Below are positions 3,278 to 22,618 of a stretch of DNA of 64,000 nt, in pieces (within the stretch, counting starts at the first letter, position 1; each line of letters opens with the position of its first letter). The notes under the pieces were generated by a model. That model made no database searches. It was not told the DNA's origin and was given only the letters and a program-made list of their open reading frames with translations. Source of the DNA: an uncultured Bacillales bacterium. GTDB lineage: Bacteria; Bacillota_I; Bacilli_A; RF39; UBA660. The translations under genes and the position numbers were made by a program. The stretch is from assembly GCA_947564265.1 (NCBI GenBank), contig CANOBK010000007.1:38529-102528 (forward strand), read 5' to 3'.

Positions 3278-3281
3278 TAGG

Positions 3282-7126: not shown

Positions 7127-7155
7127 TTGACGATTTTACCAATTTATGGTATAAT
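7127..7155 (+). promoter_or_regulatory. Sigma-A-type promoter for the first cohesin gene
   Basis: -35 TTGACG (7127-7132), 17-nt spacer, extended -10 TGgTATAAT (TATAAT 7150-7155). Confidence 0.7.
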
Positions 7156-7181
7156 ATGCGACAACTTAGGGGGAAATTGAA

Positions 7182-7913
7182 ATGAAAAAGAAATTAGTAT
7201 TAGGTACAATTTTAGCTGGGATGTTATTAAGCATAACTCCAGTAGATGCAAAAGGAACTGCAAAGGTAAGCTTTGTGTCAGACAATGAAGTAAAAGTAGG
7301 GGATACTTTTACAGTAAAACTACAAGTATCAGATATTAAGGATACTTATGATGGTGTTGTTAGTATGAGTGGACGTTTGTCTTTTGATCAGGACATAATT
7401 GAATTTGTTTCTGCTAAAGGAATCGAAACACCTTACCAATTCCAAATGAATGAAAGAACAATGATGATAGCAGGCCTTGATTTTACCTTAAAAAATGGCT
7501 TCTATGATACCTTAACTGTCTATGAATTCACATTTAAGGCTATTCAAGAAGGTACTTCTAATATTACCTTAGAAAAATCTACTTTAACTGATAGTAAGGG
7601 TTATATTACCAATACAGTGGTTAATCAGGAAATCGAAGTAAAAGAAGAAAATACCATCGATGAGATTATTCCTACAGAGGAAAAAACTTCAATAGTTTTA
7701 GAAGACAAGAAGGATATAGCAAAAGAAGAAAACGTTGTAGAAGTCGAGAAAGAGGAAAAAGTAGAATCTAGCAAGGAAGAAAAACCAGTAGCCCAAGAGA
7801 AGACTACTACTTCTGATACTAAAAAAGCAAAAAGAGTAAGAAGAATTTATCGTTCTCAAAAATTTCAACGAGTAGTAAAAGACATCGTTTTAAAGTTAAA
7901 GAACTTATTTTAA
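7182..7913 (+). CDS. Secreted cohesin-domain protein with Glu/Lys-rich linker and strongly basic C-terminal tail
   Basis: Signal peptide 'MKKKLVLGTILAGMLLSITPVDA'; cohesin-like 'VKVGDTFTVKLQVSDIKDTYDGVVSMSGRLSFDQDIIEFVSAKG ... YEFTFKAIQEGTSNITL'; tail 'KKAKRVRRIYRSQKFQRVVKDIVLKLKNLF'. Confidence 0.7.
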   Translation: MKKKLVLGTILAGMLLSITPVDAKGTAKVSFVSDNEVKVGDTFTVKLQVSDIKDTYDGVVSMSGRLSFDQDIIEFVSAKGIETPYQFQMNERTMMIAGLDFTLKNGFYDTLTVYEFTFKAIQEGTSNITLEKSTLTDSKGYITNTVVNQEIEVKEENTIDEIIPTEEKTSIVLEDKKDIAKEENVVEVEKEEKVESSKEEKPVAQEKTTTSDTKKAKRVRRIYRSQKFQRVVKDIVLKLKNLF

Positions 7914-7916
7914 GAG

Positions 7917-7942
7917 AGAAGATTGTGATATCTTCTTTTTTT
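7917..7942 (+). terminator. Rho-independent terminator
   Basis: AGAAGAT (7917-7923) / ATCTTCT (7930-7936) stem followed by a T-run. Confidence 0.65.
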
Positions 7943-7965
7943 ATATCTTTCTTTGCATAAAAGAC

Positions 7966-7995
7966 TTGTTTTCTTTTTTTAAAATATGCTATAAT
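7966..7995 (+). promoter_or_regulatory. Putative sigma-A promoter (extended -10)
   Basis: TTGTTT (7966-7971), 18-nt spacer, TGcTATAAT (TATAAT 7990-7995). Confidence 0.5.
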
Positions 7996-8020
7996 GAATT
8001 TACAAGGTAGGTAGTATAGT

Positions 8021-8509
8021 ATGAAAAATTTAAATAAGAAAACATTGATTATCATTGCTAGTATTCTAGTAGTTGTGCTTGTAGTATTAACAGTTTTTAT
8101 CTTAAATCCATTTGCAAAGAGTGCCTCTCAAGAAGAGGATATGAAGAAAAAACTTGAAACGATGGGTGCAGAGTTTTATGAAGACTTCTATTACAAACAA
8201 ATTGATTCTTTAGGGGAAGAGAAAGCAGACTTTCTAAAAAAATATGAAACTTTAGGGATTAAAGTTGACTTAGGAAATCTTTCTCGTTATAAAGGACAGA
8301 ATGATAGTGAAGAAATTTTAAAAGAATTTGTTAACAAAGAAACAAATAAAGCTTGCGATAAAAATAAGACACAAGTAATTATTTATCCACAAAGCCCTTA
8401 TGATAAAAAATCATATAAGCTTGAAGTTAAATTAGAATGTGGATTTGAGACAGAAAAAGAAAATGAAGAAAACAATGAAACCAAAAATAATGAGAACAAA
8501 GAGCAGTGA
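8021..8509 (+). CDS. Membrane-anchored hypothetical protein
   Basis: N-terminal TM 'LIIIASILVVVLVVLTVFIL', acidic/Lys-rich ectodomain; no recognised domain. Confidence 0.65.
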   Translation: MKNLNKKTLIIIASILVVVLVVLTVFILNPFAKSASQEEDMKKKLETMGAEFYEDFYYKQIDSLGEEKADFLKKYETLGIKVDLGNLSRYKGQNDSEEILKEFVNKETNKACDKNKTQVIIYPQSPYDKKSYKLEVKLECGFETEKENEENNETKNNENKEQ

Positions 8510-8557
8510 TGCTCTTTTTCTTTGCATGAAATAATATAAACAGTAAATACTAATGAT

Positions 8558-8587
8558 AAGAAAGACGTTTGGTAGTCTTTCTTTTTT
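8558..8587 (+). terminator. Rho-independent terminator
   Basis: AAGAAAGAC (8558-8566) / GTCTTTCTT (8575-8583), 9-bp perfect stem, then a T-run. Confidence 0.75.
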
Positions 8588-8739
8588 AGTCAACTTAAAA
8601 ACGGAAAAATGTAAAACAATCTAGTGACTTTACATCTATTGACAGCTGTTTACATTTGTTTTGCACAAAAGGACTAGTCAATTGTCAAATTGTCTGTTAT
8701 AGTCGAATTAAAGATAAAGAAAGATATGGAGTTGTTATT

Positions 8740-11700
8740 ATGAAAAAGAAATTCAAATATTTATTAGTTAGTATGATCATGATGTTTGCAGTTTGCTTAC
8801 CAAATTCAGTATTTGCAGCAGCAGATCATAATCTTAGTTTAAGTGGAGTTGTCTGTCCAGTAGAAAATTATGCAGACAAAACAGGAAAGGATATCTATTA
8901 TGCCTGTATGGAAGATTACCTGGATGGAAACTTAGACGCAGGTCTTATCAGTAGTGGAGATAATGTAGAACCTGGAACTACTGTTATGGTAATCTTAAAT
9001 TATAAACCAGGAGATTCTCATGACGTAGTTGCCCTAAATGCAACTCTTCGTTATGACTCTACAAAATGGACACCTCTTGTACAAGAAGGAGACGACTTTT
9101 ATGATGAGACTCAATTTCCAAAGCCAGGAAGAAGAGTAACTTGGCAAACCTCTTTTAATGTTAGAGGTCCTGGAGATATCAGTTATTATATAGAAGATAC
9201 AGCTAATACAATGACTCCAATTAGTCAAGATACAGAATTAGGATATGTATTCCTAAAGTTAAATGATGATGTACAACCCAATGATGATATTACTTTAACT
9301 TTAGGGGATGAGCCAGGAGATACTGACTTTGCAGATGATAATGGAGATCAAGTAAGACCTTATACCTTAACCGATATGCCTCTTACCTCAACAGGTGCTT
9401 CTGAGTCTACTGATGCAAGTTTAAAAACTTTAACTGTAAAAAATGGAACAACAACTTATGCGTTAGACCCAACTTTTACTCCAGGAAGTACAGCTGTTAC
9501 TTCTTATACAGCAAAAGTACCTAATAATATTACATCTGTTGATATCGATGCTACAGTAAATGAAAGCCATGCAACTATTTTACCTGCTGGTTTAGGAACT
9601 AAATCATTAAATGTCGGTGATAACTCTTTTGATATTATTGTAACAGCTCAATCAGGAGCAACGGAAACTTATACAGTTCATGTTTATCGTTTATCAAATG
9701 ATGCAAGTTTATCAAGTTTAACTACAGATGGTACGAGTGTACCAGGATTTGTAAAAACAACAACGACTTATACACTTCCTGATGTTGCAGCATCAAAAAG
9801 TACCATGGTAATTGGTGCTACAGTATCTGATACAGGAAAAGCAAAGATTGTAAGCGGTACAGGTACTGTAAATTTAGTAGCAGGGGATAATAGCTTTGAT
9901 GTAGTAGTAGAAGCAGAAGATGGAACTCAAGAAACTTATACAATTAAAGTAAAAAAATTATCAAATAATGTAAAACTTGCAAGTTTAAATGTAACAAGTA
10001 ATCCACAAGGAACTTTATCACCTGCATTCTCAAGTACAAATATGAGTGGTTATACTTTTACATATGATTTAACAGCACCACAAATTACTGTGGCAGCTAC
10101 AGTAGAAGATACAGGAAAAGCAAAAATTGCTATCGTAGATGTTTCTACTAATGCGAGTGCGACAGGTACTCCACAATTAGATTCAGCAACAGAAACTTTC
10201 GCAAATACAGTAACGAAAGTATCTGTTATCGTAACAGCAGAGGATGGAACAGTTCAAGCTTATCCAATTACCTTATCTCGTTCTAAATCTACGAATACTT
10301 ATTTATCAAGTTTATCACTTACAGAAACAACTTTAAACGAAGCGTTCGTAAAAACAACACGTACCTATACAGCAACGGTTGCATCAAACGTTACTAGTGT
10401 AACTGTAAATGCAGTAGCTGAAGATGCTCCAAGAGCTACAATCAAATCAATTACAGGAAATACAAACTTACAATATGGAAATAATCCAATTGTCATCACT
10501 GTAAAAGCAGAAAGTGGATTAGAAGAAACTTATACAATTAACTTAACTCGTGAAAAATCAAATGTGGCAACTTTAGATGATTTAACAGTAGACGGAACAA
10601 CCGTTCCTGGATTTAATAAAAATACCTTTACTTATACAATTCCAGGAAGTGTTGCTTATAATAAAACATCAGTTACGATTGGAACTGTTAAAACAGATAC
10701 CAATTCAACAGTAACTGGAGATGGATCAGTAAACTTAACAACAGGATCAAATCAAATTGTTGTCAAAGTAACTGCTCAAAATGGGGTTGACTTTAACGAA
10801 TATAAAATCAATATTGAACGCGACAAAAATAGTGATAATACAGTTCATAGTTTAACAGTAGCAGGAAAAACGCCTACATTAAATGCATCTGGAAATTATG
10901 AAGTAACTCTTCCAAATGGAAAGACAACATTAGATCCAAGTGATGTAAATGTTACAGTAGGGGATGGAGCAACTGTTAATAAGGGAGCTGCAATCACATT
11001 ATCAACTGAAAACGTTAATACGTATCAATTTACAGTTACCAGTGAATCTGGAGTAACAAAAACGTATACAGTATTAGTTACAAGAGAACCATCAACTTCA
11101 ACAACACTTTCTAAAGTAACTTTAAATATTGGAGCAGATAGTAGTAGAAGTTGTGTTATGAGTGGAGATACTTGTAAAATTACGATTCCAGCAGATACAA
11201 CAGACTTTACCCTAACAACTGAAATTCCAGCAACTTCAACAATTTCTCCAGTAGATGGAACACCTCACAGTATGGCATTAACAGAAAGTTCAAAAAATAT
11301 TACATTAACAGTAACAGCAGAGGATGGAACAACAACTAAAGATTATACATTAGTAGTAGAAAGAGAAAAATCTACTGTAAATACATTAGCTACTCTTACA
11401 ACGGATTCTGGAACTTGGGATCAAACATTTGCACCAGGAACAAATAATTATACAATCAATGTTGATGGTAGTGTTGATTCAATCAATGTAACAGCAACTT
11501 TAACAGATTCTCGTGCAGAAATTATCAGTGGTACAGGACCTCATGCATTAAATGTTGGGAATAATTCAATTACTGTTCGTGTAAAAAGTGAATCTGGTGC
11601 TTTCAATGATTACAATCTTACAGTAATAAGAGCACAAAAATCAGATAATAGTTTATTAGATTTAACAGTAGATGGAACAACGGTTCCTGGATTCAACAAA

Positions 11701-13464
11701 GATGTTTTAGAATATACATTAACTAATGTACCTAATTCAACAACAAGTATCACAATTGGAGTAACAAAATCTGATACAGATGCAACAGTTACTGGTACTG
11801 GTAGAAAAGCATTACAAGTTGGACCAAATACATTTGAAGTAACAGTAAAAGCACAAAATGGTGATGAACAAACTTACAAGATTCATGTAACAAGGGATGC
11901 AAATGATGAAGCTAGATTAAGTTCATTAGTAATTAATGGGCAAACTTTAGACCCAGCTTTCGATAAAGATACCTTTGATTATGAAATTACAGTAGATGCA
12001 ACAAAAGATACATTATCACCAAATGAAATTACTGCCATTCCAGTAGATACAAATGCAACAGTAGTAAAAGATGCTGCACTTAGTCTATCTACAACAATGG
12101 ATAATTATTATGAAATCAATGTAACAGCAGAAGATGGACATACACAAAAGACTTATACAATTAAAGTAAATCGTCCAAAATCAAGTGATGCTACTTTAAA
12201 GGCAGTCAATGTAACTGGAGGTTCTTTATCACCAGCAATTAGTCCTACAGAAACAAATTATACAATTACACTTCCAACTGGAAGTACAAACTTCTCAATT
12301 GAAGGTATTGCTAATGCAGGAACAACTCAAGTATTTGGAAACGGTTCTTATACCTTAGCTGATGGAACCGTAACACTTACAACAAGAGCAGAAGATGGAA
12401 CAGAATTAACTTATACATTTACAATTAAAGAAACTTTAAGTAATGATGCAACTCTTGCTAGTTTAAGTGTAACAGATCACAATTTAGATAAAACGTTCCA
12501 ACCAACAGAAAAGAGCTATAGTATTGGGGATGTTACTTATGGTACAACTCAATTAGTAGTAAATGCAGTAGCAACCAATATTGATTCTACAATTGAATAT
12601 TTCTTAGATGGAACACTTCAAGCAAATAACATTATTAATATTCCTAATACATTAGGATCAAAAACAATTACAGTAAAAGTAACTGCACCAGATGGAACTA
12701 CAACAGAGTCTTATGATATTGCTTATAACTTGGTTCAATCAAGTAATGCTTTCTTAAAGAGCATTGTACCATCTGTTGGAATTTTAAATCCATCTTTCGT
12801 AAATACTACAAAGGATTATGAAGTGGCAGTAAATGGAACAACTACTAGTATTAGCTTTGATCTTGAAGCAGAAGATAGCAATTCACAAATTACGGTAAAT
12901 GGTGAAACAGCAACTGGAACTAAAACAGTTACAATGTCTAACTTAGTAGATGGAGAAAATCCACTTACTATCCTAGTAACTGCACAAGATGGAACAACAG
13001 AAACTTATACAGTAGTAGTTAAGAAAGAAGTAAGTATTTCAGAAGTAATTACTTCAGATGTTTATGGACATGTAATTAAAGATGACACTTATATTATGAC
13101 TGTGACAGAACATACAACTGGAAGTCAAATGAAAGATCAATTGGATAATCCAAATGAATATTTAGAAGTATGGACAGCTGACGAAACAACACAAGTTGCA
13201 GATACTGATGAAATGGCAACTGGTATGGTTGTAAAACTAATGATTGGTGGGCAAGAAAAAGATCGTAAGTACATTGTAATTAAAGGAGATGTTAGTGGAG
13301 AAGGAGTCATTGACTTATATGACGCTACTATAATTTTAAATCATGTATTGTTACCACAATTAACAGGTGCCTATGAGCAAGCAGGATATGTTAGTGCAGA
13401 TACTGAAATTGATTTATATGATGCAACTATGATTCTAAACTATGTATTATCGCAAAGCTGGTAA
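8740..13464 (+). CDS. Giant secreted surface protein: N-terminal cohesin-like region, 13 cadherin-like beta-sandwich repeats, X-module, C-terminal dockerin
   Basis: GGAG RBS then ATG 8740 ('MKKKFKYLLVSMIMMFAVCLPNSVFAAAD' signal peptide); 13 units each ending 'E/K-TYT-I/V-x-V-x-R/K'; C-terminus 'KGDVSGEGVIDLYDATIILNHVL...VSADTEIDLYDATMILNYVL'. Confidence 0.8.
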   Translation: MKKKFKYLLVSMIMMFAVCLPNSVFAAADHNLSLSGVVCPVENYADKTGKDIYYACMEDYLDGNLDAGLISSGDNVEPGTTVMVILNYKPGDSHDVVALNATLRYDSTKWTPLVQEGDDFYDETQFPKPGRRVTWQTSFNVRGPGDISYYIEDTANTMTPISQDTELGYVFLKLNDDVQPNDDITLTLGDEPGDTDFADDNGDQVRPYTLTDMPLTSTGASESTDASLKTLTVKNGTTTYALDPTFTPGSTAVTSYTAKVPNNITSVDIDATVNESHATILPAGLGTKSLNVGDNSFDIIVTAQSGATETYTVHVYRLSNDASLSSLTTDGTSVPGFVKTTTTYTLPDVAASKSTMVIGATVSDTGKAKIVSGTGTVNLVAGDNSFDVVVEAEDGTQETYTIKVKKLSNNVKLASLNVTSNPQGTLSPAFSSTNMSGYTFTYDLTAPQITVAATVEDTGKAKIAIVDVSTNASATGTPQLDSATETFANTVTKVSVIVTAEDGTVQAYPITLSRSKSTNTYLSSLSLTETTLNEAFVKTTRTYTATVASNVTSVTVNAVAEDAPRATIKSITGNTNLQYGNNPIVITVKAESGLEETYTINLTREKSNVATLDDLTVDGTTVPGFNKNTFTYTIPGSVAYNKTSVTIGTVKTDTNSTVTGDGSVNLTTGSNQIVVKVTAQNGVDFNEYKINIERDKNSDNTVHSLTVAGKTPTLNASGNYEVTLPNGKTTLDPSDVNVTVGDGATVNKGAAITLSTENVNTYQFTVTSESGVTKTYTVLVTREPSTSTTLSKVTLNIGADSSRSCVMSGDTCKITIPADTTDFTLTTEIPATSTISPVDGTPHSMALTESSKNITLTVTAEDGTTTKDYTLVVEREKSTVNTLATLTTDSGTWDQTFAPGTNNYTINVDGSVDSINVTATLTDSRAEIISGTGPHALNVGNNSITVRVKSESGAFNDYNLTVIRAQKSDNSLLDLTVDGTTVPGFNKDVLEYTLTNVPNSTTSITIGVTKSDTDATVTGTGRKALQVGPNTFEVTVKAQNGDEQTYKIHVTRDANDEARLSSLVINGQTLDPAFDKDTFDYEITVDATKDTLSPNEITAIPVDTNATVVKDAALSLSTTMDNYYEINVTAEDGHTQKTYTIKVNRPKSSDATLKAVNVTGGSLSPAISPTETNYTITLPTGSTNFSIEGIANAGTTQVFGNGSYTLADGTVTLTTRAEDGTELTYTFTIKETLSNDATLASLSVTDHNLDKTFQPTEKSYSIGDVTYGTTQLVVNAVATNIDSTIEYFLDGTLQANNIINIPNTLGSKTITVKVTAPDGTTTESYDIAYNLVQSSNAFLKSIVPSVGILNPSFVNTTKDYEVAVNGTTTSISFDLEAEDSNSQITVNGETATGTKTVTMSNLVDGENPLTILVTAQDGTTETYTVVVKKEVSISEVITSDVYGHVIKDDTYIMTVTEHTTGSQMKDQLDNPNEYLEVWTADETTQVADTDEMATGMVVKLMIGGQEKDRKYIVIKGDVSGEGVIDLYDATIILNHVLLPQLTGAYEQAGYVSADTEIDLYDATMILNYVLSQSW
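9412..13029 (+). repeat. 13 divergent protein-level tandem repeats (about 88-105 aa) of cadherin-like beta-sandwich type
   Basis: Each unit starts like 'S-(D/N)-A-x-L-x-x-L-x-V' with 'T-x-Y-T-x-x-V' and ends '(A/T)(E/Q)DG...(T/E)YT(I/V)xVxR'. Copies are divergent at the DNA level. Confidence 0.75.
13282..13461 (+). other. Dockerin-like module (divergent class)
   Basis: Two EF-hand-like segments: 'DVSGEGVIDLYD' + helix 'ATIILNHVL', and 'YVSADTEIDLYD' + helix 'ATMILNYVL' (the first Asp of loop 2 is replaced). Confidence 0.65.
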
Positions 13465-13476
13465 GATAGTTAAAAT

Positions 13477-13503
13477 AGAGGTAGAAATTCTACCTCTTCT
13501 TTT
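13477..13503 (+). terminator. Rho-independent terminator
   Basis: AGAGGTAG / CTACCTCT stem (13477-13497) followed by TCTTTTAT. Confidence 0.8.
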
Positions 13504-13683
13504 ATTGACACCTAAAAGTACATATTTGACAATTTTTGTCGAAAAATAGCTTTTAATTCTGTCTAGATTATGCTATCCTTATAATAAGGAAGGAGCATAA
13601 ATAGTAGAATAATATAATTAATTAAGCAATAATTGACAAATATTAGATTCAATGATTTATGAACTAAAAGTAGGAGGAAGTAT

Positions 13684-15891
13684 ATGAAAAGAATAAAAAG
13701 TTTAAATTTATTGATGATTTTAGCACTTATATTTACAACCTTTAGTTTTACAGTTCCAGTAGAAGCTGCTGGTAAGGGTGGCTTTGGGTTTGACGGGAAC
13801 TCTAAAGTTGCTTTGGGGGAAAATATTACGGTTTCACTATATATATCTGATATCGCAGATACAGATGGTGGAGTATGTAGTTTAGAAACAAATATTCAGT
13901 TTGATAGTACATATCTAGAGTATGTATCATATAAATCAACCTGTCCATTTGGTGCCAAATTAGTTCCAGAAAATAGCTATAAAATAGCAGGTATGGATTT
14001 TATGCAAACTAGTTGTTTTACTGCTAAGACTGGTGTTATGGAAATTACATTTAAGGCAATTAAAGAGGGAGAAACGGAAGTCTCTGCAATTAATACAAAA
14101 TTAAATGACACAAAAAATAGGTTAACAGCTACAGGTGGGTCAAAAAAAATTACGATTGGACCAAAGAGTACACCAACTCCAACACCAACTCCAACGCCTA
14201 CACCTACGCCAACAAATAAACCGACACCAACACCAACTCCAACGCCACCACCATCAAAGAGTAGTGATGCAACATTGAAGAGTTTGATAGCAAGTGGGTA
14301 TACATTAAGCCCAAGTTTCTCAGCAAACACAACAAATTACACGGTAAAGGTACCTAGTGATGCAACCAATGTAATATTACAAGGTACAGCAAACCATGGA
14401 AAAGCAACGATTGCAGGTCTTGGAACAATTAATTTAACTGGAAATAATACAACAGCTACTATTACAGTAACTGCTGAAGATGGTAGCAAGAAGACATATA
14501 CAATTAATATTGAAAAAGAAGCTAAGAACGAACCTGCTAAGGATGGAGATGCAACATTAAAAAGCTTAAGTGTTAGCGGATACACCTTAAATCCAACTTT
14601 CAAGAGTAATGTAAATACATACTCTATGACAGTTAAAAATAATATTACTAGTTTAAATGTAGATGCAGTTGCAAATAGTAGCAAAGCAAATGTCGAAATT
14701 TCTGGTAATAGAAACTGGAAAGTAGGAGTAAACGTAGTTACAATTAAAGTAACTGCTGAAAATGGTAATGTAAATACCTATATTGTAAACGTAACGAGAG
14801 AAGCTGCAAAAACAAATAATACAGCTACTCCAAAGCCTAAATCATCAGATAACTATTTGAATGATTTAATTATTAATTCATCACATGAAATTAGTCCAAA
14901 ATTTAATAAGAATACATCAAACTATACAGTAACAGTACCTTATGAGGTAGATAAATTAGATTTAAGTTATGTTACAAGTAATTCTGCTGCTAAAGTAAAA
15001 GTAAATGGAAATAGTAATTTCTTAGTAGGAGAAGTTAATACTGTTGAACTTGAAGTAACAGCTGAAGATGGAACAATTCGAGTTTATACATTGAATGTTA
15101 CTCGTAGTACTCAAAATGGAAAGACGGATTTAAAAGAATTAACAGTAACAAATGGAACTTTAAGTCCAAATTTTGATCCAAGTGTTTTGGAATATACTAC
15201 AAAAGTAGATGGAAAAACAGATAAGTTAGATATTAAAGCAATCGCAAAAGATGCAGATTCTAAAGTAGAAATTATTGGTAATGATAATCTAAAAGAGGGT
15301 AATAATACTGTTTTAGTAAAAGTTACTGATAAAAATGGATTTACCAAGTACTATACAATCAATGTAGAAAAAGAAGCTAAGAAAAATACCATTTTAGGTT
15401 TATCACCACTTCAATTTGGAATTATTGCTAGTATTATTGGATTGTTATTATTCCTATTACTATTCCTATTATGGAAGAGAAAAGATGATGAGGAAGAAGA
15501 AGTAAAAGAAGAACCAGTAGGACCTGCTCCAGTAACACCAATTATTGAAGTAAAACCAGAATTTAATTTCAGTTCTAAAAATACTTCTGATGATGATGTT
15601 GTTCATGGTAATATGAATCAGGATAGTACAGTTACTACAGGTAGTGATGCTATAGCTGCTACAAGAACACTTCCAGCAATTGAAGCAACTTATGAGGATG
15701 TTGAAGATAGAGTTCCTTATGATCCATATGATGAAACAGTAACGAAAAAGGAATTAATCGATGCAATTAATGAAGCGACAAAGACAAAAGATCCAGCAAA
15801 ATTAAAAATGTTATTAGAACAAGATGCATTGAATCAAAAGAAAAAAGAAATTAGAAAAAAGGAAGAAGAATTAAGAAGGAAAAAATACTAA
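13684..15891 (+). CDS. Membrane-anchored scaffold: cohesin, Thr-Pro linker, 4 cadherin-like repeats, TM helix, ~190-aa acidic/coiled-coil cytoplasmic tail
   Basis: AGGAGG RBS; signal peptide; cohesin-like 'GENITVSLYISDIADTDGGVCSLETNIQFDSTYLEYVSYKS ... MEITFKAIKEGETEVS'; 'TPTPTPTPTPTPTPT'; repeats ending 'KTYTINIEKE','NTYIVNVTRE','RVYTLNVTRS','KYYTINVEKE'; TM 'FGIIASIIGLLLFLLLFLLW' then 'KRKDDEEEE...'. Confidence 0.8.
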   Translation: MKRIKSLNLLMILALIFTTFSFTVPVEAAGKGGFGFDGNSKVALGENITVSLYISDIADTDGGVCSLETNIQFDSTYLEYVSYKSTCPFGAKLVPENSYKIAGMDFMQTSCFTAKTGVMEITFKAIKEGETEVSAINTKLNDTKNRLTATGGSKKITIGPKSTPTPTPTPTPTPTPTNKPTPTPTPTPPPSKSSDATLKSLIASGYTLSPSFSANTTNYTVKVPSDATNVILQGTANHGKATIAGLGTINLTGNNTTATITVTAEDGSKKTYTINIEKEAKNEPAKDGDATLKSLSVSGYTLNPTFKSNVNTYSMTVKNNITSLNVDAVANSSKANVEISGNRNWKVGVNVVTIKVTAENGNVNTYIVNVTREAAKTNNTATPKPKSSDNYLNDLIINSSHEISPKFNKNTSNYTVTVPYEVDKLDLSYVTSNSAAKVKVNGNSNFLVGEVNTVELEVTAEDGTIRVYTLNVTRSTQNGKTDLKELTVTNGTLSPNFDPSVLEYTTKVDGKTDKLDIKAIAKDADSKVEIIGNDNLKEGNNTVLVKVTDKNGFTKYYTINVEKEAKKNTILGLSPLQFGIIASIIGLLLFLLLFLLWKRKDDEEEEVKEEPVGPAPVTPIIEVKPEFNFSSKNTSDDDVVHGNMNQDSTVTTGSDAIAATRTLPAIEATYEDVEDRVPYDPYDETVTKKELIDAINEATKTKDPAKLKMLLEQDALNQKKKEIRKKEEELRRKKY
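14170..14253 (+). repeat. Thr-Pro dipeptide linker coding repeat
   Basis: (ACN CCN)n encoding TPTPTPTPTPTPTPTNKPTPTPTPTPPP. The antisense 'GVGVGV' ORF at 13977-14330 is its complement. Confidence 0.9.
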
Positions 15892-15909
15892 CAGTTGGAG
15901 GTAAACATT

Positions 15910-16809
15910 ATGAAGAAAAATAATAGGAAATTATTTCATTTCATTATCCTATCTTTTTTCTTCTTTTTTTGTCCCTTTTTGGTTGATGCAGAAGGGACTG
16001 CTATTTCAGGATTCAAAGTAGTTGGTAATCCTTATTTAGAAGAGACTTTTGATGTTATTTTATATTTAGATGAGATTAAGGGTACTTCTGATGATTTAGG
16101 ACTTGCGGGTATTCAAGGGTATTTCTACTATGACAAGGATAAATTGGAACTTGTTAGTTATGAGTCTTTGGCACCTTATACAATAATTTTTTCTGAAAAT
16201 CGTGTTGTTGGCTTGGGAATTTATGAGTATATGAATGGATATCAAGATATTTTAAGATTTACTTTTAAAGCGAAAAAGAAGGGAGATGCTATTATAAATT
16301 TTCCAGATTTAGATTCTCCTGACTCAAAAGCAGAAAAGGTCTATATCACAGGGTGCCAAGAAACACTCTCTATTACTAATCGTCCAGAACCATTAACAAT
16401 CGATGAGACAAGTATTTATGTACTTACAAAAACCTCTAAAAAATTAACGGTGAGTTATAATTTAGAGGGAACTGTAACTGGTTCTTGGTCTTCAGAAAAT
16501 CCTAGTATCGCAACCGTTAGTCAAGATGGGACCGTAACGGGAGTATCTCAGGGTATTACAAAAGTAATCTATCAAACAAATAATGGTTATCGTGTAGAAT
16601 GTACAGTAACAATTTCTAATTATCTAAAGGGTGATGTTACAAAAAACGGGAAAGTCAATATAAAAGATGTAATGGATGTAATGTATTTTTACACAAGAAA
16701 AAAGACGCCAACTGAAGATTTATATATTATTGGAGATATGAATAATGATGGAAAATTGAATTTGAAAGATGCTAATCTTATTCTTGCAGTTTATTTGAAG
16801 AAATTCTAA
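15910..16809 (+). CDS. Adaptor-type protein carrying both a cohesin and a dockerin (cohesin - Big_2 - dockerin)
   Basis: GGAGGT RBS then ATG 15910; signal peptide; cohesin-like 'LEETFDVILYLDEIKGTSDDLGLAGIQGYFYYDKDKLELVSYES ... LRFTFKAKKKGDAIINF'; Big_2-like 'SWSSENPSIATVSQDGTVTGVSQG'; dockerin 'GDVTKNGKVNIKD...GDMNNDGKLNLKD'. Confidence 0.75.
   Translation: MKKNNRKLFHFIILSFFFFFCPFLVDAEGTAISGFKVVGNPYLEETFDVILYLDEIKGTSDDLGLAGIQGYFYYDKDKLELVSYESLAPYTIIFSENRVVGLGIYEYMNGYQDILRFTFKAKKKGDAIINFPDLDSPDSKAEKVYITGCQETLSITNRPEPLTIDETSIYVLTKTSKKLTVSYNLEGTVTGSWSSENPSIATVSQDGTVTGVSQGITKVIYQTNNGYRVECTVTISNYLKGDVTKNGKVNIKDVMDVMYFYTRKKTPTEDLYIIGDMNNDGKLNLKDANLILAVYLKKF
16621..16806 (+). repeat. Dockerin-coding module, copy A (paralogous to 17581-17763)
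   Basis: Encodes 'YLKGDVTKNGKVNIKDVMDVMYFYTRKKTPTEDLYIIGDMNNDGKLNLKDANLILAVYLKKF'; aligns without gaps to copy B at protein and DNA level. Confidence 0.8.
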
Positions 16810-16892
16810 ATTATAATAGTTAATAGTATAGATAAATCTGTACTATTTTTCTTTTGCAATATTATGAATTTGTGAGAAAAAAAATCGAAATC

Positions 16893-16921
16893 TAGACTTT
16901 CTTGTAAGCAAGTGCTATAAT
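16893..16921 (+). promoter_or_regulatory. Putative sigma-A promoter (extended -10)
   Basis: TAGACT (16893-16898), 17-nt spacer, TGcTATAAT (TATAAT 16916-16921). Confidence 0.5.
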
Positions 16922-16965
16922 AGAAATAAGAACAAGATAGATGTGAATATGATAAGGAGGGGAGT

Positions 16966-16985
16966 GAAACAACGAATGTTGTTTC
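16966..16985 (+). promoter_or_regulatory. Perfect 8-bp hairpin between a strong SD and the start codon
   Basis: GAAACAAC-GAAT-GTTGTTTC. SD AAGGAGGGG lies at 16954-16962 and the ATG at 16996. No SD is present at normal distance from the ATG. Confidence 0.5.
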
Positions 16986-16995
16986 AATTATTAAA

Positions 16996-17766
16996 ATGAA
17001 GTTAGGCGTTAGAAAGAAAATAGTAGTTACAATATTCTTTTTATTTAGTATTTTTTGGATCAATCCATTTTCTGTGAATGCAGCGGATGATACTACAGGA
17101 AAAAGAAATATTGAAGATGCAGTTGTCGAGGGTCTTTATAATTATCCTTTTACAGGGGCTTATATAAAACCAGATACTATTGTTGTAAAATATGGAGATG
17201 AAGTATTAGTAGAAAATACAGATTATACAATCACCTTTTCAGGTTTTTATGGTCCAGGTACAATTACTGTTACTATCAAAGGAAGAAAAAATTATGAAGG
17301 TACTTTGATTAAAGAATATGACATTATTAGAAATACCAATTATATTTTAAGAATTAATAAGCCAGTAGTAAGTCTCTCACTTCAAGGAACTCAGACTTTA
17401 AGCTTATATACGACACCAAATGTTTATATTAATCCTAGTAAAATTAAATGGGAATCTTCTGATTCTAATGTTGTTTCTGTTGATGAGTCTGGTAATTTAA
17501 CACCTATTCAATTAGGAAATGCAACTATTACAGCAACGTTTAATGGGCAAAGTGTAACTAGTCAAGTAACGGTAGTAGAATATCTAAAAGGGGATATCAA
17601 TAAAGATGGGAAAGTTAACTTAAGAGATGTTATGGAAATTCTGTATTTTTATACAAAAAAGAAGATACCAACGGAAGAAAGTTATGTACTAGGAGATATG
17701 AATGAGGATGGGAAACTGAACTTGAAAGATGCTACGCCAATTATAGAAATCTATTTGAAGAAATAA
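16996..17766 (+). CDS. Secreted dockerin protein (N-terminal MBG/YGX-like domain - Big_2 - dockerin)
   Basis: Signal peptide '...FWINPFSVNAADD'; 'FTGAYIKPDTIVVKYGDEVLVENTDYTITFSGFYGPGTITVTIKGRKNYEGT'; Big_2-like 'IKWESSDSNVVSVDESGNLTPIQLGNATITA'; dockerin 'GDINKDGKVNLRD...GDMNEDGKLNLKD'. Confidence 0.75.
   Translation: MKLGVRKKIVVTIFFLFSIFWINPFSVNAADDTTGKRNIEDAVVEGLYNYPFTGAYIKPDTIVVKYGDEVLVENTDYTITFSGFYGPGTITVTIKGRKNYEGTLIKEYDIIRNTNYILRINKPVVSLSLQGTQTLSLYTTPNVYINPSKIKWESSDSNVVSVDESGNLTPIQLGNATITATFNGQSVTSQVTVVEYLKGDINKDGKVNLRDVMEILYFYTKKKIPTEESYVLGDMNEDGKLNLKDATPIIEIYLKK
17581..17763 (+). repeat. Dockerin-coding module, copy B
   Basis: Encodes 'YLKGDINKDGKVNLRDVMEILYFYTKKKIPTEESYVLGDMNEDGKLNLKDATPIIEIYLKK'. 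Confidence 0.8.
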
Positions 17767-17767
17767 A

Positions 17768-18481
17768 ATGAAGAAAAAATATCAAATTTATATCATTAAT
17801 GGGATAATTATAATTTTAATCGCTATATTTTTATTTTCTACTTATCGATTCCTTAGACTTTCTTATTTCAAAGAGTCAAGTAGAAAAGCAAATGAAAAAA
17901 TTATTGAAAAGGTAATTATTCCATTAGAAACTTCTGACAAAGAGGAAGAAGACGAAATTTTTACTGTGGATTTTCAAAAACTAAAAGAAATCAATAGTGA
18001 TGTAATTGGTTGGATTTATATTCCAGGCACAAAAATTAACTATCCAATTGTACAAAGACAAGATAATTCCTATTATTTGACTCATGATATTAATAAAAAA
18101 TATAATATCTTGGGATCTATCTTCATGAATTCTTCAAATCATAGTGACTTTTCAGATTCTAATACCATTTTATTTGGACATAATAATCATCAAGATAATT
18201 TAATGTTTACAGATTTAAAAGAAATCTATGATGGGAACTTAGGAAATCAATTAGATATTTATATCTACACAGAAGAAAAAAATTATATATATCAGATTTA
18301 TTCTGTATACTTAGCGACACCATCAGATGAGAGTCCACTAAACACAGCAATAGACTTTTTTGATCGAACAGAGAGGGAATTTCTTTATGACCAAACAGAT
18401 ATTAAAAAAACGTTAACTTTATCTACCTGTTATAAGGATAGTAGCAAAAGAATTATTATTCATGCGTCAAGAAGTGTCTAA
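17768..18481 (+). CDS. srtB: Class B sortase
   Basis: N-terminal TM anchor; 'VIGWIYIPGTKINYPIVQ', 'DNSYYLTHD', catalytic His 'ILFGHN', catalytic Cys 'TLSTC', Arg 'IIIHASR'; ATG is 1 nt after the upstream stop (translational coupling). Confidence 0.85.
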   Translation: MKKKYQIYIINGIIIILIAIFLFSTYRFLRLSYFKESSRKANEKIIEKVIIPLETSDKEEEDEIFTVDFQKLKEINSDVIGWIYIPGTKINYPIVQRQDNSYYLTHDINKKYNILGSIFMNSSNHSDFSDSNTILFGHNNHQDNLMFTDLKEIYDGNLGNQLDIYIYTEEKNYIYQIYSVYLATPSDESPLNTAIDFFDRTEREFLYDQTDIKKTLTLSTCYKDSSKRIIIHASRSV

Positions 18482-18567
18482 TAGATAAATAACCTGTTTT
18501 ATTTATCAGAAATAAATGTTATGATAGTAGTAAGAAAATAGGAGAACCCTATCTATAGGAGGATATT

Positions 18568-21500
18568 ATGAAACTAAAAAAGAAGTATAAAGGAATATTG
18601 TTATCTTTTGTATTAGTGGCAATTTTAGCAGTGACGAATTTGATTGCTGGGGCCTCTAATATCGCAAAAATGACAATTGAACCATTAGCAGGGGATATTG
18701 AACCAGGAGATACGTTTACATTAAATATAAAACTTCAAGATTCTGGGGAATTTGACGGATTAGGTTTCAAATTGAATTATGATAATACAGCATTCGAATT
18801 TCAAAATGCAACCTATTTAGAGGGAAAATATGCAGGTTCATTGATAATGACCAATAATTCCGGTAACCAGGTAATTTTTGGTTTTACTCATACTGTTGAT
18901 ACTGGAACAAATTATGAGGATTGTAATGGAATCATTGCAACGGTAACCTTTAAGGCGAAGGATACAGCCGTTGGGGAATATGATTTTAGATTAGCTATGG
19001 ATCGTGTAACTGATGACGATGAATTCTTCAAAACAGATGCTGATATGAATGATACAGATTTGGAACTAGAAACAGGTTCTTTAAAAGTAAAAGTTAAAGT
19101 AGATGCAACAGATATTAATGTTTCACCAACAAGTATTAGTTTGATTAAAGGTGATTCAACAACGATTTCAGTAGCACCTATTCCTAGCAAAGTAACTACT
19201 TTAAGAAATGCAAGTATTACGGCTAGTCCTAGTGGAATTGTTAATGTTGATAACGATGGAAATGTAGAAGCTGTTGGAAATGGTACTGCTACTATTAGTG
19301 TAACTGCTTATGGAATTACAAAAACTGTTTCAGTAACTGTTACCAATCCACTTGTAGGAATTTCTCTAGATAAAACATCCTTAGAATTGGGAAAAGGGGA
19401 AACTTATAAATTAACAGCAACTTTAAATCCAACCGATACTTCAGAATCTAAAGACATCACTTGGACATCTTCTAATGATCAAATTGCTTCTGTTAGTAGC
19501 GACGGTACAGTAACTGCTGTTGGGAATGTAGGAGATACAAAAGCAACGATTCGTGCTACTTCTTCAAACCCTACGATTTATGCAGAATGTGTAGTTGATA
19601 TCGTGATTCCAATTACTTCTGTAGATATGGATGAAAATCCAATTACGATGAATAAAGGAGATACGAAACAATTATCTTTCACCTATGAACCTAGTAATAC
19701 AACACAAAATAAGACAATTACTTGGGAGTCTTCTGATCCAACGGTTGCTACTGTAACCAATGGAAAAGTAACTGCTATCAAAGGTGGTACTACTACAATT
19801 ACTGCTTCTATGTTAAATAAGAAATGGACGAAGTCAGTAGAAATTACAGTAGAAGTTGGATTAAATGATGTAACTTTCAGTCCAATGAGTGTAGAATTAT
19901 TACCAGGACAAGATCAAGAAATTACAAAAACGTTTGATCCATTCGATGCAACACATAAGGATATTACTTGGAATTCTACAGATACAGGAGTAGTGACTGT
20001 AGATACGAATGGTAAGATTCATGCTGTAGCAGCAGGTACAACAACGGTAACTGCTACTTATCAAACATTAACTGGACAAAAAACAAAAACAATCAATGTA
20101 AAAGTATTAATTCCAATTACTGGAGTTACAATTAAACCAAATAGTAGTATTACAATTAATAAAGGTGAAACTACAACCTTATCAGTAGAAGTTACTCCTG
20201 CCAATGCAGAAGAAGATAAAACAGTAACTTGGAGTAGTGATACACCGAATGTTGCTTCTGTCGATCAGTCAACTGGTGTAGTTACTGCTAAAAGTGGTGG
20301 TAGTGCTACCATTACTGGTACTTTAAAAAATGGTAAAACCGTAACTGCCTATATTAATGTTCATGTACCAGTTAGTGGTGTAACTTTAAATCAAACAGAG
20401 TTAAATTTAAATAAGGGTGATACTTATAATGGGTTAGTTGCAACAATTAATCCAAGTGATGCAACAGTGCAAGCTGTTACATGGAGTAGTTCTGATACAG
20501 CAGTTGCAACAGTAGATGCTTCAACTGGAGTCATTACTGCAAAAGCAGATGGAACTGCTATTATTACAGCTACTGCTGAAGGAAAAACGGCAACAGTTAC
20601 TGTAAAAGTGACAACTGCTGTAACAAGTGTATCCATTGATCAAGGAACAACAAAAACAATGATAAAAGGAGATACAGATACTTTAACAGCTACTGTACTT
20701 CCAAACGATGCAACTGATAAAACAGTGACTTGGAGTAGTGATAACTCAGGAATCGTTAGTGTAGATGCGAATGGTAACATTGCTGCTAAAGCAGGTGGCC
20801 AAGCAATCATTACTGCCAAAGCAGGAAGCAAAACAAGTACAATTACTATTACAGTTCGAGTACCAATTACAAAATTTGAATTAGCTTCACAAGATCAAAA
20901 TCCAACGATTCTTAGAGGTGCTAAAAATGCAAAAACTTTAACGACAATTATTGGACCAGATGATGCAACAGATGATAGAACTATTACTTGGACTTCTTCA
21001 GACAATACGGTAGCAACCGTAGATGCTACTGGTAAAGTTACCGGATTAAAAGAAGGAACAGCAGTTATTACAGGTACCTTAAATTCAACGGGTGCTACTG
21101 TTCGTTCTAATGTTACAATTCAAGTAATTGAACTTACAGGAATTAAAGTATCTTTAGAAACTGATGATGTTTTAAAAGGAAAGAGCTATCCTGTTACTGT
21201 AACGCCAATTCCAGAAGATTCAACTGAACTTGAGAATATCGTATTCGAAAGCAGTGATGAAGATATCTTCACCGTTTCTAGTGATGGTATCATTACTGGA
21301 GTAAAAGAAGGAACTGCAACATTGACAGTAACCGTTTTAGGACCTGGTGTTACAAGAGCTAATCCAATTACAGAACAGATTGAAATTCATGTTCGTGAAA
21401 TTGCTCTAGAAGGAATTGCGATTGTTCCAATTGAAGGAACATTAACAGTTGGAGAAACAACACAAATCGAGCTTGATTTAATTCCAGAAGATGTAACAGA

Positions 21501-21783
21501 TGACATTAAGATTGTATACAAATCAAGTGATGAAACAATTGCAACTGTAGATGAAAATGGTGTAGTAACTGCTTTAAAAGAGGGAAAAGTTAAAATTTCA
21601 GTTATAGCAAGTACGGATGCTGCTGAATTTACATCAGAAACAGAAATTACAATTGTAAAACCTAGTGTAAGTCCAAGTACTTCTGTAGAGGCAACTACAA
21701 AATACCTAATCATTTCAGCCGTTTCTATGGTTCTAGTTGGAGGACTTATCGTTACAAAAAGAAAAATGAAAAAGGTAAAATAA
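18568..21783 (+). CDS. Cell-surface scaffold: cohesin + 10 Big_2 domains + C-terminal hydrophobic anchor with basic tail
   Basis: AGGAGG RBS; signal peptide; cohesin-like 'IEPGDTFTLNIKLQDSGEFDGLGFKLNYDNTAFEFQNATY ... ATVTFKAKDTAVGEYDF'; ten units of '...L.KG.T..L.ATV.P.DA.....TW.SSD..VA.VD..G.VTA...G.A.ITA'; C-terminus 'SPSTSVEATTKYLIISAVSMVLVGGLIVTKRKMKKVK'. Confidence 0.85.
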   Translation: MKLKKKYKGILLSFVLVAILAVTNLIAGASNIAKMTIEPLAGDIEPGDTFTLNIKLQDSGEFDGLGFKLNYDNTAFEFQNATYLEGKYAGSLIMTNNSGNQVIFGFTHTVDTGTNYEDCNGIIATVTFKAKDTAVGEYDFRLAMDRVTDDDEFFKTDADMNDTDLELETGSLKVKVKVDATDINVSPTSISLIKGDSTTISVAPIPSKVTTLRNASITASPSGIVNVDNDGNVEAVGNGTATISVTAYGITKTVSVTVTNPLVGISLDKTSLELGKGETYKLTATLNPTDTSESKDITWTSSNDQIASVSSDGTVTAVGNVGDTKATIRATSSNPTIYAECVVDIVIPITSVDMDENPITMNKGDTKQLSFTYEPSNTTQNKTITWESSDPTVATVTNGKVTAIKGGTTTITASMLNKKWTKSVEITVEVGLNDVTFSPMSVELLPGQDQEITKTFDPFDATHKDITWNSTDTGVVTVDTNGKIHAVAAGTTTVTATYQTLTGQKTKTINVKVLIPITGVTIKPNSSITINKGETTTLSVEVTPANAEEDKTVTWSSDTPNVASVDQSTGVVTAKSGGSATITGTLKNGKTVTAYINVHVPVSGVTLNQTELNLNKGDTYNGLVATINPSDATVQAVTWSSSDTAVATVDASTGVITAKADGTAIITATAEGKTATVTVKVTTAVTSVSIDQGTTKTMIKGDTDTLTATVLPNDATDKTVTWSSDNSGIVSVDANGNIAAKAGGQAIITAKAGSKTSTITITVRVPITKFELASQDQNPTILRGAKNAKTLTTIIGPDDATDDRTITWTSSDNTVATVDATGKVTGLKEGTAVITGTLNSTGATVRSNVTIQVIELTGIKVSLETDDVLKGKSYPVTVTPIPEDSTELENIVFESSDEDIFTVSSDGIITGVKEGTATLTVTVLGPGVTRANPITEQIEIHVREIALEGIAIVPIEGTLTVGETTQIELDLIPEDVTDDIKIVYKSSDETIATVDENGVVTALKEGKVKISVIASTDAAEFTSETEITIVKPSVSPSTSVEATTKYLIISAVSMVLVGGLIVTKRKMKKVK
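19105..21660 (+). repeat. Array of 10 Big_2 (bacterial Ig-like group 2) domain-coding units
   Basis: Ten recurring 'TW(T/S)SS(D/N)..(V/I)A(T/S)V' cores spaced about 85-95 aa apart. Confidence 0.8.
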
Positions 21784-21784
21784 A

Positions 21785-22618
21785 ATGAAAAGAATATTAG
21801 GAATTTATTTATTACTGCAAATCTTACTAATTCCTAATGTGTATGCTGAGGAACTACCTACAATTTCTGTAGGTAGTTTTGACGCCTATATAGGAGAAAA
21901 GATTGTAGTACCTATTACAATTAAAAACAATCAAGGTTGTAGTTATCTTGGAATTAAAATCAATTATGATGATTCAAGTTTGGACTTTTTAGATTCCAAA
22001 ATAAAAGGATTAGAAAATGCAGATCTAAAGGATATTCAAAGAGATGAAGATGTGATTACACTTTATGCTATGGCATTTCAAGATAATAAAACGATGAAGG
22101 ATAACGGTGTTATCGCAGAACTTAGTTTTCAGGTAAAAGAAAATGCCGTGACGTCAGAGTTAAGGCTTGAAGTAACGGATTACGGTGGTGAAGACTTAGT
22201 AGATTTCGACTTTAGGCAGGAAAATGGTATTATAAGAATTGCCGAACGTAAGGTGACAAATTCTACTGAAGATTTAACGCAATCACTTCCTTCTTCTGAA
22301 GGAGTAGTGACATGGAAATCATCTGATGAATCCGTTACATCTATAAATGAAGAAGGAATCGCAACTTTTTCCAAAGAAGGAACTTCTAAAATTACAGGGC
22401 TTGATTCTGATGGAAATATCATTATAGAAAAAGAATATAGTGTAGTGGATGAGACAAAGAAAGCCAAGAAAGAAACTGAAAAGGAAGACGAAAGAAAAAA
22501 GAAGAAGCCAAATGGAATCATCTATATTTTTGGTTCTTTAGGAATTCTTCTCATTCTAAGTATTTTATTAATTATAATCAAGTATTGTCATCATTCAAGA
22601 ATTAAGAAGGCAAATTAA
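21785..22618 (+). CDS. Small membrane-anchored cohesin protein (cohesin - Big_2-like - Lys/Glu linker - TM)
   Basis: ATG 1 nt after the upstream stop; signal peptide 'LLLQILLIPNVYA'; cohesin-like 'AYIGEKIVVPITIKNNQGCSYLGIKINYDDSSLDFLDSKI ... AELSFQVKENAVTSELRL'; 'VTWKSSDESVTSINEEG'; C-terminal TM 'IIYIFGSLGILLILSILLIII' + 'KYCHHSRIKKAN'. Confidence 0.75.
   Translation: MKRILGIYLLLQILLIPNVYAEELPTISVGSFDAYIGEKIVVPITIKNNQGCSYLGIKINYDDSSLDFLDSKIKGLENADLKDIQRDEDVITLYAMAFQDNKTMKDNGVIAELSFQVKENAVTSELRLEVTDYGGEDLVDFDFRQENGIIRIAERKVTNSTEDLTQSLPSSEGVVTWKSSDESVTSINEEGIATFSKEGTSKITGLDSDGNIIIEKEYSVVDETKKAKKETEKEDERKKKKPNGIIYIFGSLGILLILSILLIIIKYCHHSRIKKAN

Follow-up and report, generated by a model that had tools for sequence, protein, structure and literature searches.

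A predicted enzyme-free cohesin-dockerin surface-display locus with its own class-B-like sortase in an uncultured Bacillales bacterium

Nine same-strand genes at positions 7182-22618 (forward strand) of a 64-kb stretch of DNA from an uncultured Bacillales bacterium (contig CANOBK010000007.1, positions 38,529 to 102,528; the whole stretch is hereafter the window) probably encode a hierarchical, wall-anchored and non-enzymatic cohesin-dockerin system for the display of adhesins or fibrils on a Gram-positive cell surface. The locus holds six cohesins (one of them probable), three dockerins, 17 Cadherin-like and 13 Big_2 repeats, a class-B sortase and a small membrane protein, and all nine products have a signal peptide or signal anchor at the N-terminus. 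A six-frame scan of the window found cohesin, dockerin, Big_2 and Cadherin-like modules nowhere outside this locus. Scans of the locus proteins with Pfam and NCBIfam detected no glycoside hydrolase (GH), carbohydrate-binding module (CBM), S-layer homology (SLH) domain or other catalytic family, and the locus is enzyme-free within the window. An earlier sequence-only reading had claimed this absence and had proposed a non-cellulosomal, enzyme-free surface assembly with its own class-B sortase; its gene coordinates and module description proved accurate, and its general conclusion is borne out by the module identities, the lack of catalytic modules and synteny in relatives. The explanation favoured here draws on module identities, topology signals, synteny, a sorting motif and the co-variation of modules between genomes. 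The features of the locus are listed below, with amino acid (aa) positions given for each product; c1 to c5 denote the cohesins of 7182, 13684, 15910 (the adaptor), 18568 (the stalk) and 21785, and the giant is the product of 8740.

7127..7155, forward strand: promoter-like TTGACG-17-TATAAT with TG, 5′ of the first gene, a consensus match only
7182..7913, forward strand: c1, a secreted single group-I cohesin (aa 23-158) with an E/K-rich linker and a basic amphipathic C-terminal helix
8021..8509, forward strand: small N-terminally anchored protein with a transmembrane segment (aa 9-27), and a conserved ectodomain of about 110 aa that contains two Cys
8740..13464, forward strand: the giant, with a signal peptide, a divergent cohesin-like domain (aa 47-206), 13 Cadherin-like repeats (aa 237-1431), a region of about 78 aa and a type-B dockerin (aa 1510-1574)
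13477-13497: terminator-like hairpin after the giant gene
13684..15891, forward strand: c2, a group-I cohesin (aa 28-162) with a Thr-Pro linker, four Cadherin-like repeats, a transmembrane segment (aa 578-596) and a cytoplasmic tail (aa ~600-735)
15910..16809, forward strand: the adaptor, with a group-I cohesin (c3, aa 27-161), Big_2 and a type-A dockerin (aa 235-299); Pfam Big_2 and Dockerin_1
16996..17766, forward strand: small dockerin protein with an Ig-like N-domain, Big_2 and a type-A dockerin (aa 193-256); Pfam Dockerin_1 and Big_2
17768..18481, forward strand: class-B sortase with an N-terminal transmembrane segment, His in LFGHN, Cys in TLSTC and Arg in RIIIHA
18568..21783, forward strand: stalk scaffoldin with a group-II cohesin (c4, aa 29-175), 10 Big_2 (aa 179-1023) and a sorting signal (aa 1035-1071, nucleotides 21670-21780)
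21785..22618, forward strand: c5, a group-II cohesin (aa 26-156) with Big_2, a C-terminal transmembrane segment (aa 245-263) and a short basic tail

The starts of 8740 and 15910 match the N-termini of their orthologues, and single bases separate 16996 from 17768 and 18568 from 21785. Self-built hidden Markov models (HMMs) counted 13 Cadherin-like repeats in the giant and four in 13684, and 10 Big_2 repeats in the stalk with one each in the adaptor, 16996 and 21785, in line with the 17 cadherin-like and at least 12 Big_2 domains claimed before. There were no long DNA-level tandem repeats in the locus, which indicates that the arrays of domains arose long ago and have since diverged. The Thr-Pro linker of 13684 (window 14170-14253) is encoded by 14 copies of ACACCA, a simple repeat whose length could shift by slippage. 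Promoter- and terminator-like sites were not significantly above shuffled sequences, with promoter-like sites fewer than expected and terminator-like sites about two standard deviations above, and were taken as hints only.

The Pfam thresholds used were 24.1 bits for Cohesin (PF00963) and 22.9 bits for Dockerin_1 (PF00404). Two cohesins passed on whole proteins (7182 with 27.6 bits and 21785 with 33.5 bits) and two as isolated domains (13684 with 36.2 bits and 18568 with 44.5 bits). The isolated domain of 15910 scored 16 bits (E 0.015), below the threshold, and was confirmed as a cohesin by predicted fold, as its AlphaFold2 model (pLDDT 87) gave Foldseek TM-scores of 0.81 to the Clostridium perfringens cohesins 2vo8/2jh2, 0.70 to 2xdh and 0.60 to 2vn5; the five domains previously called clear cohesins are thereby all retained. 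A sixth had been suspected at the N-terminus of the giant, and this remains probable: the domain scored 22.0 bits (E 2e-4), just under the threshold, with Cohesin as the sole family matched, in five of six orthologues, and a profile of its family found only cohesins in the PDB (E ~0.01), but hhalign gave insignificant probabilities (<8%) against the other five cohesins. The AlphaFold2 model of this domain from a single sequence (pLDDT 35) was of no use, and a homologue search with it returned nothing; long giants seem not to be retrievable by such a search. A profile of all six cohesin domains matched only cohesins in the PDB, and each cohesin protein carries a single cohesin. By hhalign the clear cohesins fall into a group I of c1, c2 and c3 (98-99.8%, with c1-c2 at 99.8% and c3 to c1 or c2 at 98%) and a group II of c4 and c5 (97%).

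Dockerins were recognised by a duplicated segment of about 22 residues, in which an EF-hand-like calcium loop (D/N at positions 1, 3, 5, 9 and 12) is followed by a helix, and such an EF-hand/helix duplication is present in all three proteins for which it had been claimed. The dockerins of 16996 (30.6 bits) and 15910 (23.5 bits) score above the Dockerin_1 threshold, with the calcium loops DINKDGKVNLRD/DMNEDGKLNLKD and DVTKNGKVNIKD/DMNNDGKLNLKD, respectively. The giant's dockerin reaches 20.0 bits, just below 22.9, and its second calcium loop (YVSADTEIDLYD) opens with Y; its duplication is clear and its membership of Dockerin_1 is borderline. The giant carries the dockerin type termed B, and the adaptor, the small protein 16996 and all extra cargo of relatives carry type A, with allelic forms of both types differing between genomes (B1/B2 and A1/A1′/A2). 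Between the last Cadherin-like repeat and the dockerin of the giant lies the region of about 78 aa (window 13033-13266), at the place where X-modules precede some dockerins; neither this region nor the N-domain of 16996 had a significant match in the PDB or Pfam.

Synteny of the locus extends to about eight related genomes of uncultured Bacilli, with the same gene order on related contigs; those named are the Bacilli/Bacillales metagenome-assembled genomes (MAGs) UBA7057, MGBC119928, CANOYR01, HFG40 and JAAWDC01. Among 5.8 billion proteins, the adaptor has only 12 homologue clusters (52-100% identity) and the terminal cohesin c5 has eight, and a scan of metagenome contigs with the terminal-cohesin alignment gave a single irrelevant match (L024). 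In the most distant relative (L020), beside spoIVA, the core of a dockerin protein, class-B sortase, cohesin-Big_2 x10-SPxTS stalk and cohesin-Big_2-transmembrane protein is kept, with c5 conserved to 43% identity. The sortase gene is immediately preceded by the small dockerin gene in relatives A, B (contig L007), C, D, F and G, and the distant relative H has a 906-aa Big_2-dockerin protein in its place. Relatives also insert extra type-A dockerin proteins, with BspA-type leucine-rich repeats (LRR_5) and Big_2, between the adaptor and the sortase. The earlier view of a complete dedicated set has to give way, since relatives add LRR, transglutaminase-like and CAP (cysteine-rich secretory) dockerin cargo at this place and the upstream half also occurs without the sortase half, as described below. 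A mobile-element or horizontally acquired origin was rejected: the flanks are ordinary chromosomal genes conserved in the relatives too, there is no integrase, and the GC content is unremarkable (0.29-0.345 in the locus, about 0.26-0.32 in the remaining window). Features of related contigs that are used below are the following.

L006 7779-10734 and L009 228-3200: stretches that show the mosaic
L006 11029-13200, L009 3504-5675 and L023 2715-4887: second sortase/substrate pair inserted in the locus
L006 15954-20378: 1474-aa dockerin cargo with BspA-type LRR_5, four Big_2 and a marginal Transglut_core match (23.3 bits)
L020 1455-2735: dockerin cargo of the distant relative, with a CAP domain, Big_2 and a dockerin

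The cargo bears directly on whether this is the anchoring locus of a cellulosome or amylosome, with the dockerin-bearing enzymes encoded elsewhere in the genome. The 64 kb read here would leave room for such enzymes, scaffoldin genes are likewise clustered apart from enzyme genes in the sca cluster of Ruminococcus flavefaciens (PMC4081043), and the weak Transglut_core match on one relative's cargo makes catalytic cargo possible. However, the window encodes no GH, CBM or SLH module, and the domains found on dockerin proteins of the nine related loci are repeats, LRR or CAP, with no carbohydrate-active enzyme (CAZyme) among these proteins. A pattern scan of species-representative genomes, made for type A alone and on MAGs that are incomplete, found type-A dockerins of four related MAGs only at this locus, which is partial evidence for the absence of dockerin CAZymes outside it. 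No protein has more than one cohesin, unlike enzyme-integrating scaffoldins, and no CBM family was detected; dockerin CAZymes were found neither in the window and the nine related loci nor, by the type-A scan of four MAGs, outside the locus. We regard an enzyme-anchoring role as quite improbable.

The product of 17768 matches Pfam Sortase (PF04203, 65.2 bits), and its 15 best PDB matches are all class-B sortases, with the LFGHN, TLSTC and RIIIHA motifs (His, Cys and Arg) aligned. Its score against TIGR03064 (143.8 bits) is under the equivalog cut-off of 153.75, and these matches predict a class-B-like sortase outside the curated TIGR03064 equivalog. The stalk 18568 ends in SPSTS-VEATTKY-(hydrophobic)-KRKMKKVK, with 19 hydrophobic residues and the motif 37 residues from the end, and is the only genuine open reading frame (ORF) with a sorting-signal-like C-terminus in a six-frame scan of the window, the other pattern match being an antisense ORF of 67 aa within the giant gene. 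The motif SP[SNKD]TS is kept in all eight orthologues of 18568 (SPNTS, SPKTS and SPDTS were seen), persists to the relative whose terminal cohesin is only 43% identical, and the stalk gene always follows immediately after the sortase gene. This conservation and the constant place beside the sortase make the Big_2 stalk its likely substrate, wall-anchored via SPSTS; C. difficile SrtB cuts the similar sequences SPKTG and SPSTG (PMC4155245). Some relatives have another class-B sortase, of 280 aa, beside a 422-aa protein without a Pfam domain that ends in NPST[NS] and a sorting signal. This repeats the pattern of one sortase with one neighbour, which argues for the 17768/18568 pairing.

Two points of the sequence-only reading change as a consequence. 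It had proposed three C-terminal membrane anchors, and plain membrane anchors are present only in 13684, where the transmembrane segment is followed by about 135 aa of cytoplasmic tail, and 21785; the third, 18568, has a cell-wall sorting signal instead. It had also coupled the sortase to the dockerin gene 16996; the one-base spacing stands, but the predicted partner of the sortase is the downstream stalk rather than the upstream dockerin gene. Some class-B-like sortases assemble pili in streptococci, and the Streptococcus pyogenes structure 3psq is among the PDB matches of 17768, which would be compatible with a sortase that polymerises the Big_2 protein into a covalent pilus whose shaft is decorated by the cohesins. 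A regular-expression scan of the locus found no YPK pilin motif, E-box or second sorting-signal protein, there is one substrate-like gene per sortase, and the stalk is a 10-domain Big_2 rod and not a pilin fold. A sortase-assembled pilus is thus highly improbable, and was rejected on the absence of pilin motifs and the single sorting-signal protein.

To assign plugs to sockets we compared the identities of cohesins and dockerins across six to seven genomes by Mantel permutation tests. The giant's dockerin co-varied with c2 (r=0.92, p=0.01) and c3 (r=0.83, p=0.02), and c4 co-varied with the dockerins of the adaptor (r=0.83, p=0.006) and the small protein (r=0.75, p=0.0002), with cross terms near zero. 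Modules on one polypeptide did not co-vary, neither c3 with its own dockerin nor the giant's N-domain with its own (r=0.14), which indicates that more than simple linkage underlies the co-variation. The clearest evidence comes from a mosaic between two strains: L006 and L009 are 95-100% identical at the DNA level from the 13684 Cadherin-like repeats to the second sortase gene at the end of the compared stretch, except for patches covering only the c2 cohesin and the adaptor cohesin/Big_2 (49-72% identity). We read these patches as probable module-precise, concerted replacement of two group-I cohesin modules. L023 and L016, which have different type-A dockerins, likewise show a local loss of identity, down to 43-65%, over the stalk cohesin and the gene of the small dockerin protein. 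Together these patterns suggest that the giant's type-B dockerin pairs with the group-I cohesins of 13684 and the adaptor, and that the type-A dockerins of the adaptor and the small protein pair with the stalk cohesin c4. A comparison of dockerin halves brought out no partner for c1, c5 or the giant's cohesin-like domain.

These assignments also bear on an S-layer-like, self-assembling lattice, in which free, membrane and wall cohesins would cross-link dockerin-tipped rods. Six cohesins are available for three dockerins, there are three levels of anchoring (membrane, wall and free), the giant, with a cohesin-like domain at one end and a dockerin at the other, could form head-to-tail chains, and the near-symmetric helices of its dockerin suggest a dual binding mode. 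However, the lack of co-variation between the two ends of the giant argues against self-chaining, the cohesin identity of its N-domain is borderline, and variable LRR/CAP cargo in relatives suits display better than a coat, which makes a lattice improbable. The protein of 7182 has no transmembrane segment apart from the signal peptide. It may nevertheless not be a free cohesin: after the E/K-rich linker its C-terminus (window 7800-7910) forms a conserved basic amphipathic helix (..KFQRVVKDIVLKLKNLF, in orthologues ..LKLKNWF), which could tether it non-covalently to membrane or wall polymers.

In the membrane protein 13684 the transmembrane segment and cytoplasmic tail are far better conserved than the cohesin: orthologues share 84-96% identity with the window protein over the last 55 aa of the tail and 36-90% over the cohesin. 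The tail contains the motifs EFKPEFNF(G/S)SKN.(T/S)DDD and PYDPYDE.VTK.ELIDAI.EA..TKD..KLKMLLEQ (transmembrane segment and tail, window 15391-15888), and an exhaustive search gave a tail family of 74 representative clusters (P0027-P0100), 49 of them at E<1e-10. Nearly all members are 600-930 aa long with the tail at the C-terminus. All full-length members fetched have 3-7 Cadherin-like repeats, and about half of these match the locus cohesin HMM at the N-terminus. None of the 10 members looked up carried a functional annotation, the tail gave no significant match in the PDB or Pfam and no match to a known signalling domain, and tblastn found no match to it on plasmids. In two distant genomes (L025 and L026) a tail-family gene lies directly 3′ of a Cadherin-like giant of 2350 or 2839 aa with a type-B dockerin and is followed by a second cohesin-Cadherin-transmembrane gene, which provides independent support for pairing of the giant's dockerin with c2. 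Neither genome has a sortase or Big_2 stalk near this pair, which indicates that the window locus joins two parts: a module I of giant and membrane cohesin (7182 to 13684), which appears to be widespread, and a module II of sortase, stalk, terminal cohesin and type-A dockerins (16996 to 21785), which appears to be clade-specific. L025 also encodes, upstream of the giant/receptor pair (positions 1-2398), the last part of a protein of 7165 aa that combines Cadherin-like repeats with ALK_LTK_GRD glycine-rich regions and a canonical dockerin.

The conserved tail raises the question of whether members of the 13684 family are mainly transmembrane receptors, which would relay docking of the giant to a cytoplasmic partner for signalling or internal coupling, with the fibre as a secondary function. 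Conservation of the tail while the cohesin of the same protein drops to 36%, the same outside architecture throughout the 74-cluster family, and the pairing with dockerin-tipped giants kept in distant genomes all fit such a role. Against it, the tail resembles no known signalling domain and no regulator is consistently adjacent, since a downstream helix-turn-helix (HTH) gene is present in some relatives only. As the main function of the family we consider this improbable, but a receptor role may coexist with display. The HTH gene in question, an HTH_3 regulator at window 22739-23164 just downstream of the locus, is also present in L010, L018 and L023 and absent in L003 and L016. Combining both aspects, the cohesins and dockerins could form a strain-variable "plug-and-socket code" that is swapped by module-precise recombination between gut strains nearly identical elsewhere, with tail-family membrane proteins, each paired with a dockerin-tipped giant, coupling the outer fibre physically or informationally to the cytoplasm, a combination that we consider doubtful. 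If true, each strain would build only its own fibre, or could steal or refuse the cargo of a neighbour. We are not aware of any published transmembrane use of cohesin-dockerin binding.

The wall-anchored display system that we consider probable would be assembled as follows, where the plug-and-socket pairing, cleavage at SPSTS, fibre length and adhesion are inferred. The class-B sortase would cleave SPSTS of the 1071-aa stalk and link the stalk to peptidoglycan, exposing about 40 nm of Big_2 with a group-II cohesin at the tip. This cohesin would capture type-A dockerins, namely those of the adaptor 15910 and of 16996 and, in other strains, of LRR, CAP and transglutaminase-like cargo. With its group-I cohesin and type-A dockerin the adaptor would bridge the two modules: the type-B dockerin of the 1574-aa giant would plug into the adaptor cohesin and so mount 13 Cadherin-like domains on the stalk, giving a fibre that could reach about 100 nm (both lengths being estimates from typical Ig-domain dimensions). 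Alternatively, the giant could dock on the membrane cohesin of 13684 with its conserved cytoplasmic tail, and 16996, which has no head domain, may act as a competitor for the stalk cohesin or as its cap. The likeliest function in the gut would be adhesion, to the surface of the host, of food particles or of bacteria, or a fibrillar coat. The adhesin-like cargo of relatives (BspA-type LRR_5, Big_2 and CAP) was counted for adhesion, and both stalk repeats and a wall anchor, as in fibrillar adhesins, are present (10 Big_2 with a sorting signal; 13 Cadherin-like).

Several observations weigh against this assembly. Dockerin identity is correlated with a neutral marker too, the sortase (r=0.79 and 0.57), so that part of the co-variation signal is phylogenetic, and the co-variation is based on few (4-7) and non-independent genomes. 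Half of the cohesins (c1, c5 and the giant's N-domain) have no inferred partner, and the giant's dockerin has both its sub-threshold Pfam score and the Y at the start of its second calcium loop against it. The sortase falls below the TIGR03064 equivalog cut-off, SPxTS ends in S and not G, and to our knowledge no class-B sortase has been shown to use an SPxTS motif. Within the window there is no recognised adhesive head domain. The Pfam description of Cadherin-like (PF12733) presumably suggests carbohydrate binding, and capture of polysaccharides by the Cadherin-like repeats is equally compatible with the locus.

Full-text literature searches found no published description of such a locus or of the 13684 tail family. 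The nearest known system is the sca cluster of R. flavefaciens in its logic, the C. perfringens cohesins in fold and C. difficile SrtB in anchoring chemistry. Among solved structures, the non-cellulosomal cohesins of C. perfringens (such as those of NagJ/GH84C and GH33) come nearest to the fold of the adaptor cohesin; the profile of the locus cohesins matches them in sequence as well, and they likewise represent cohesin-dockerin modules outside plant-cell-wall degradation. In C. perfringens these modules are carried by secreted glycosidases and toxins and link enzymes in pairs, whereas the present locus has no enzyme and its modules would build an anchored multi-tier structure. The sca systems of R. 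flavefaciens and R. champanellensis likewise have a sortase-fixed anchoring scaffoldin with a single cohesin (ScaE) and cohesin-dockerin adaptors, as well as a non-enzymatic dockerin protein, CttA, that is an adhesin, and their scaffold genes form a cluster that is plastic between strains (PMC4081043). Unlike sca, the locus described here includes its own class-B sortase and uses SPxTS instead of LPXTG, lacks a multi-cohesin enzyme-integrating scaffoldin, CBM or glycoside hydrolase, involves Cadherin-like, LRR and CAP cargo in a Bacilli host and not in Oscillospiraceae, and has extra membrane cohesins, one with a conserved cytoplasmic tail.

C. difficile SrtB is a class-B sortase that anchors adhesin-like proteins via an SPxT-type motif located 17-45 residues from the C-terminus (PMC4155245), and the position of SPSTS in the stalk, 37 residues from the end, resembles that of its (S/P)PxTG substrates. 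In contrast, the motif of the stalk ends in S and not G, and 17768 has one adjacent substrate, whereas C. difficile SrtB is a single housekeeping sortase with several dispersed substrates; the match between the two sortases is at family level only (E 4e-18). Gram-positive fibrillar adhesins carry an adhesive tip on a stalk of Ig-like repeats (PMC9210967). They share with the locus a long repeat stalk, here of Big_2 or Cadherin-like domains, a wall anchor and a fast-diverging distal module, but here stalk and tip are separate polypeptides predicted to be joined non-covalently by cohesin-dockerin binding. Separate polypeptides would make the tip exchangeable and allow several cargoes to share one anchor.

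Cohesin-dockerin pairs are understood almost entirely via polysaccharide-degrading complexes, and non-cellulosomal modules have few worked examples. The locus would be a compact and complete example of cohesin-dockerin logic used for surface architecture or adhesion in gut Bacilli, with a dedicated sortase, a hierarchy of anchor, adaptor and cargo, and natural specificity variants. These variants (B1/B2 with c2/c3, and A1/A1′/A2 with the stalk cohesins) form a panel of probably orthogonal pairs for specificity tests and protein-assembly engineering, and the unnamed tail family points to a wider system missed by current annotation.

The ninth gene of the locus, 8021, encodes a protein without a significant match in Pfam, NCBIfam or the PDB. 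The gene is kept at its position in genomes W, B, D and E, with a gene of similar size there in F, and in relatives a gene of this type is invariably flanked by those of the free cohesin and the giant. Elsewhere in the window, positions 38972-42033 hold a run of nucleotide-sanitation and repair genes, with three paralogues of the uracil-DNA glycosylase superfamily and an adjoining Ham1-like ITPase and NUDIX hydrolase; a second Ham1 gene is located at 3195-3869. Downstream of the locus, positions 24969-26954 encode a 661-aa fusion of a MatE transporter and a cytidylate-kinase-like domain, and the same fusion is found near the locus in the relative L004.

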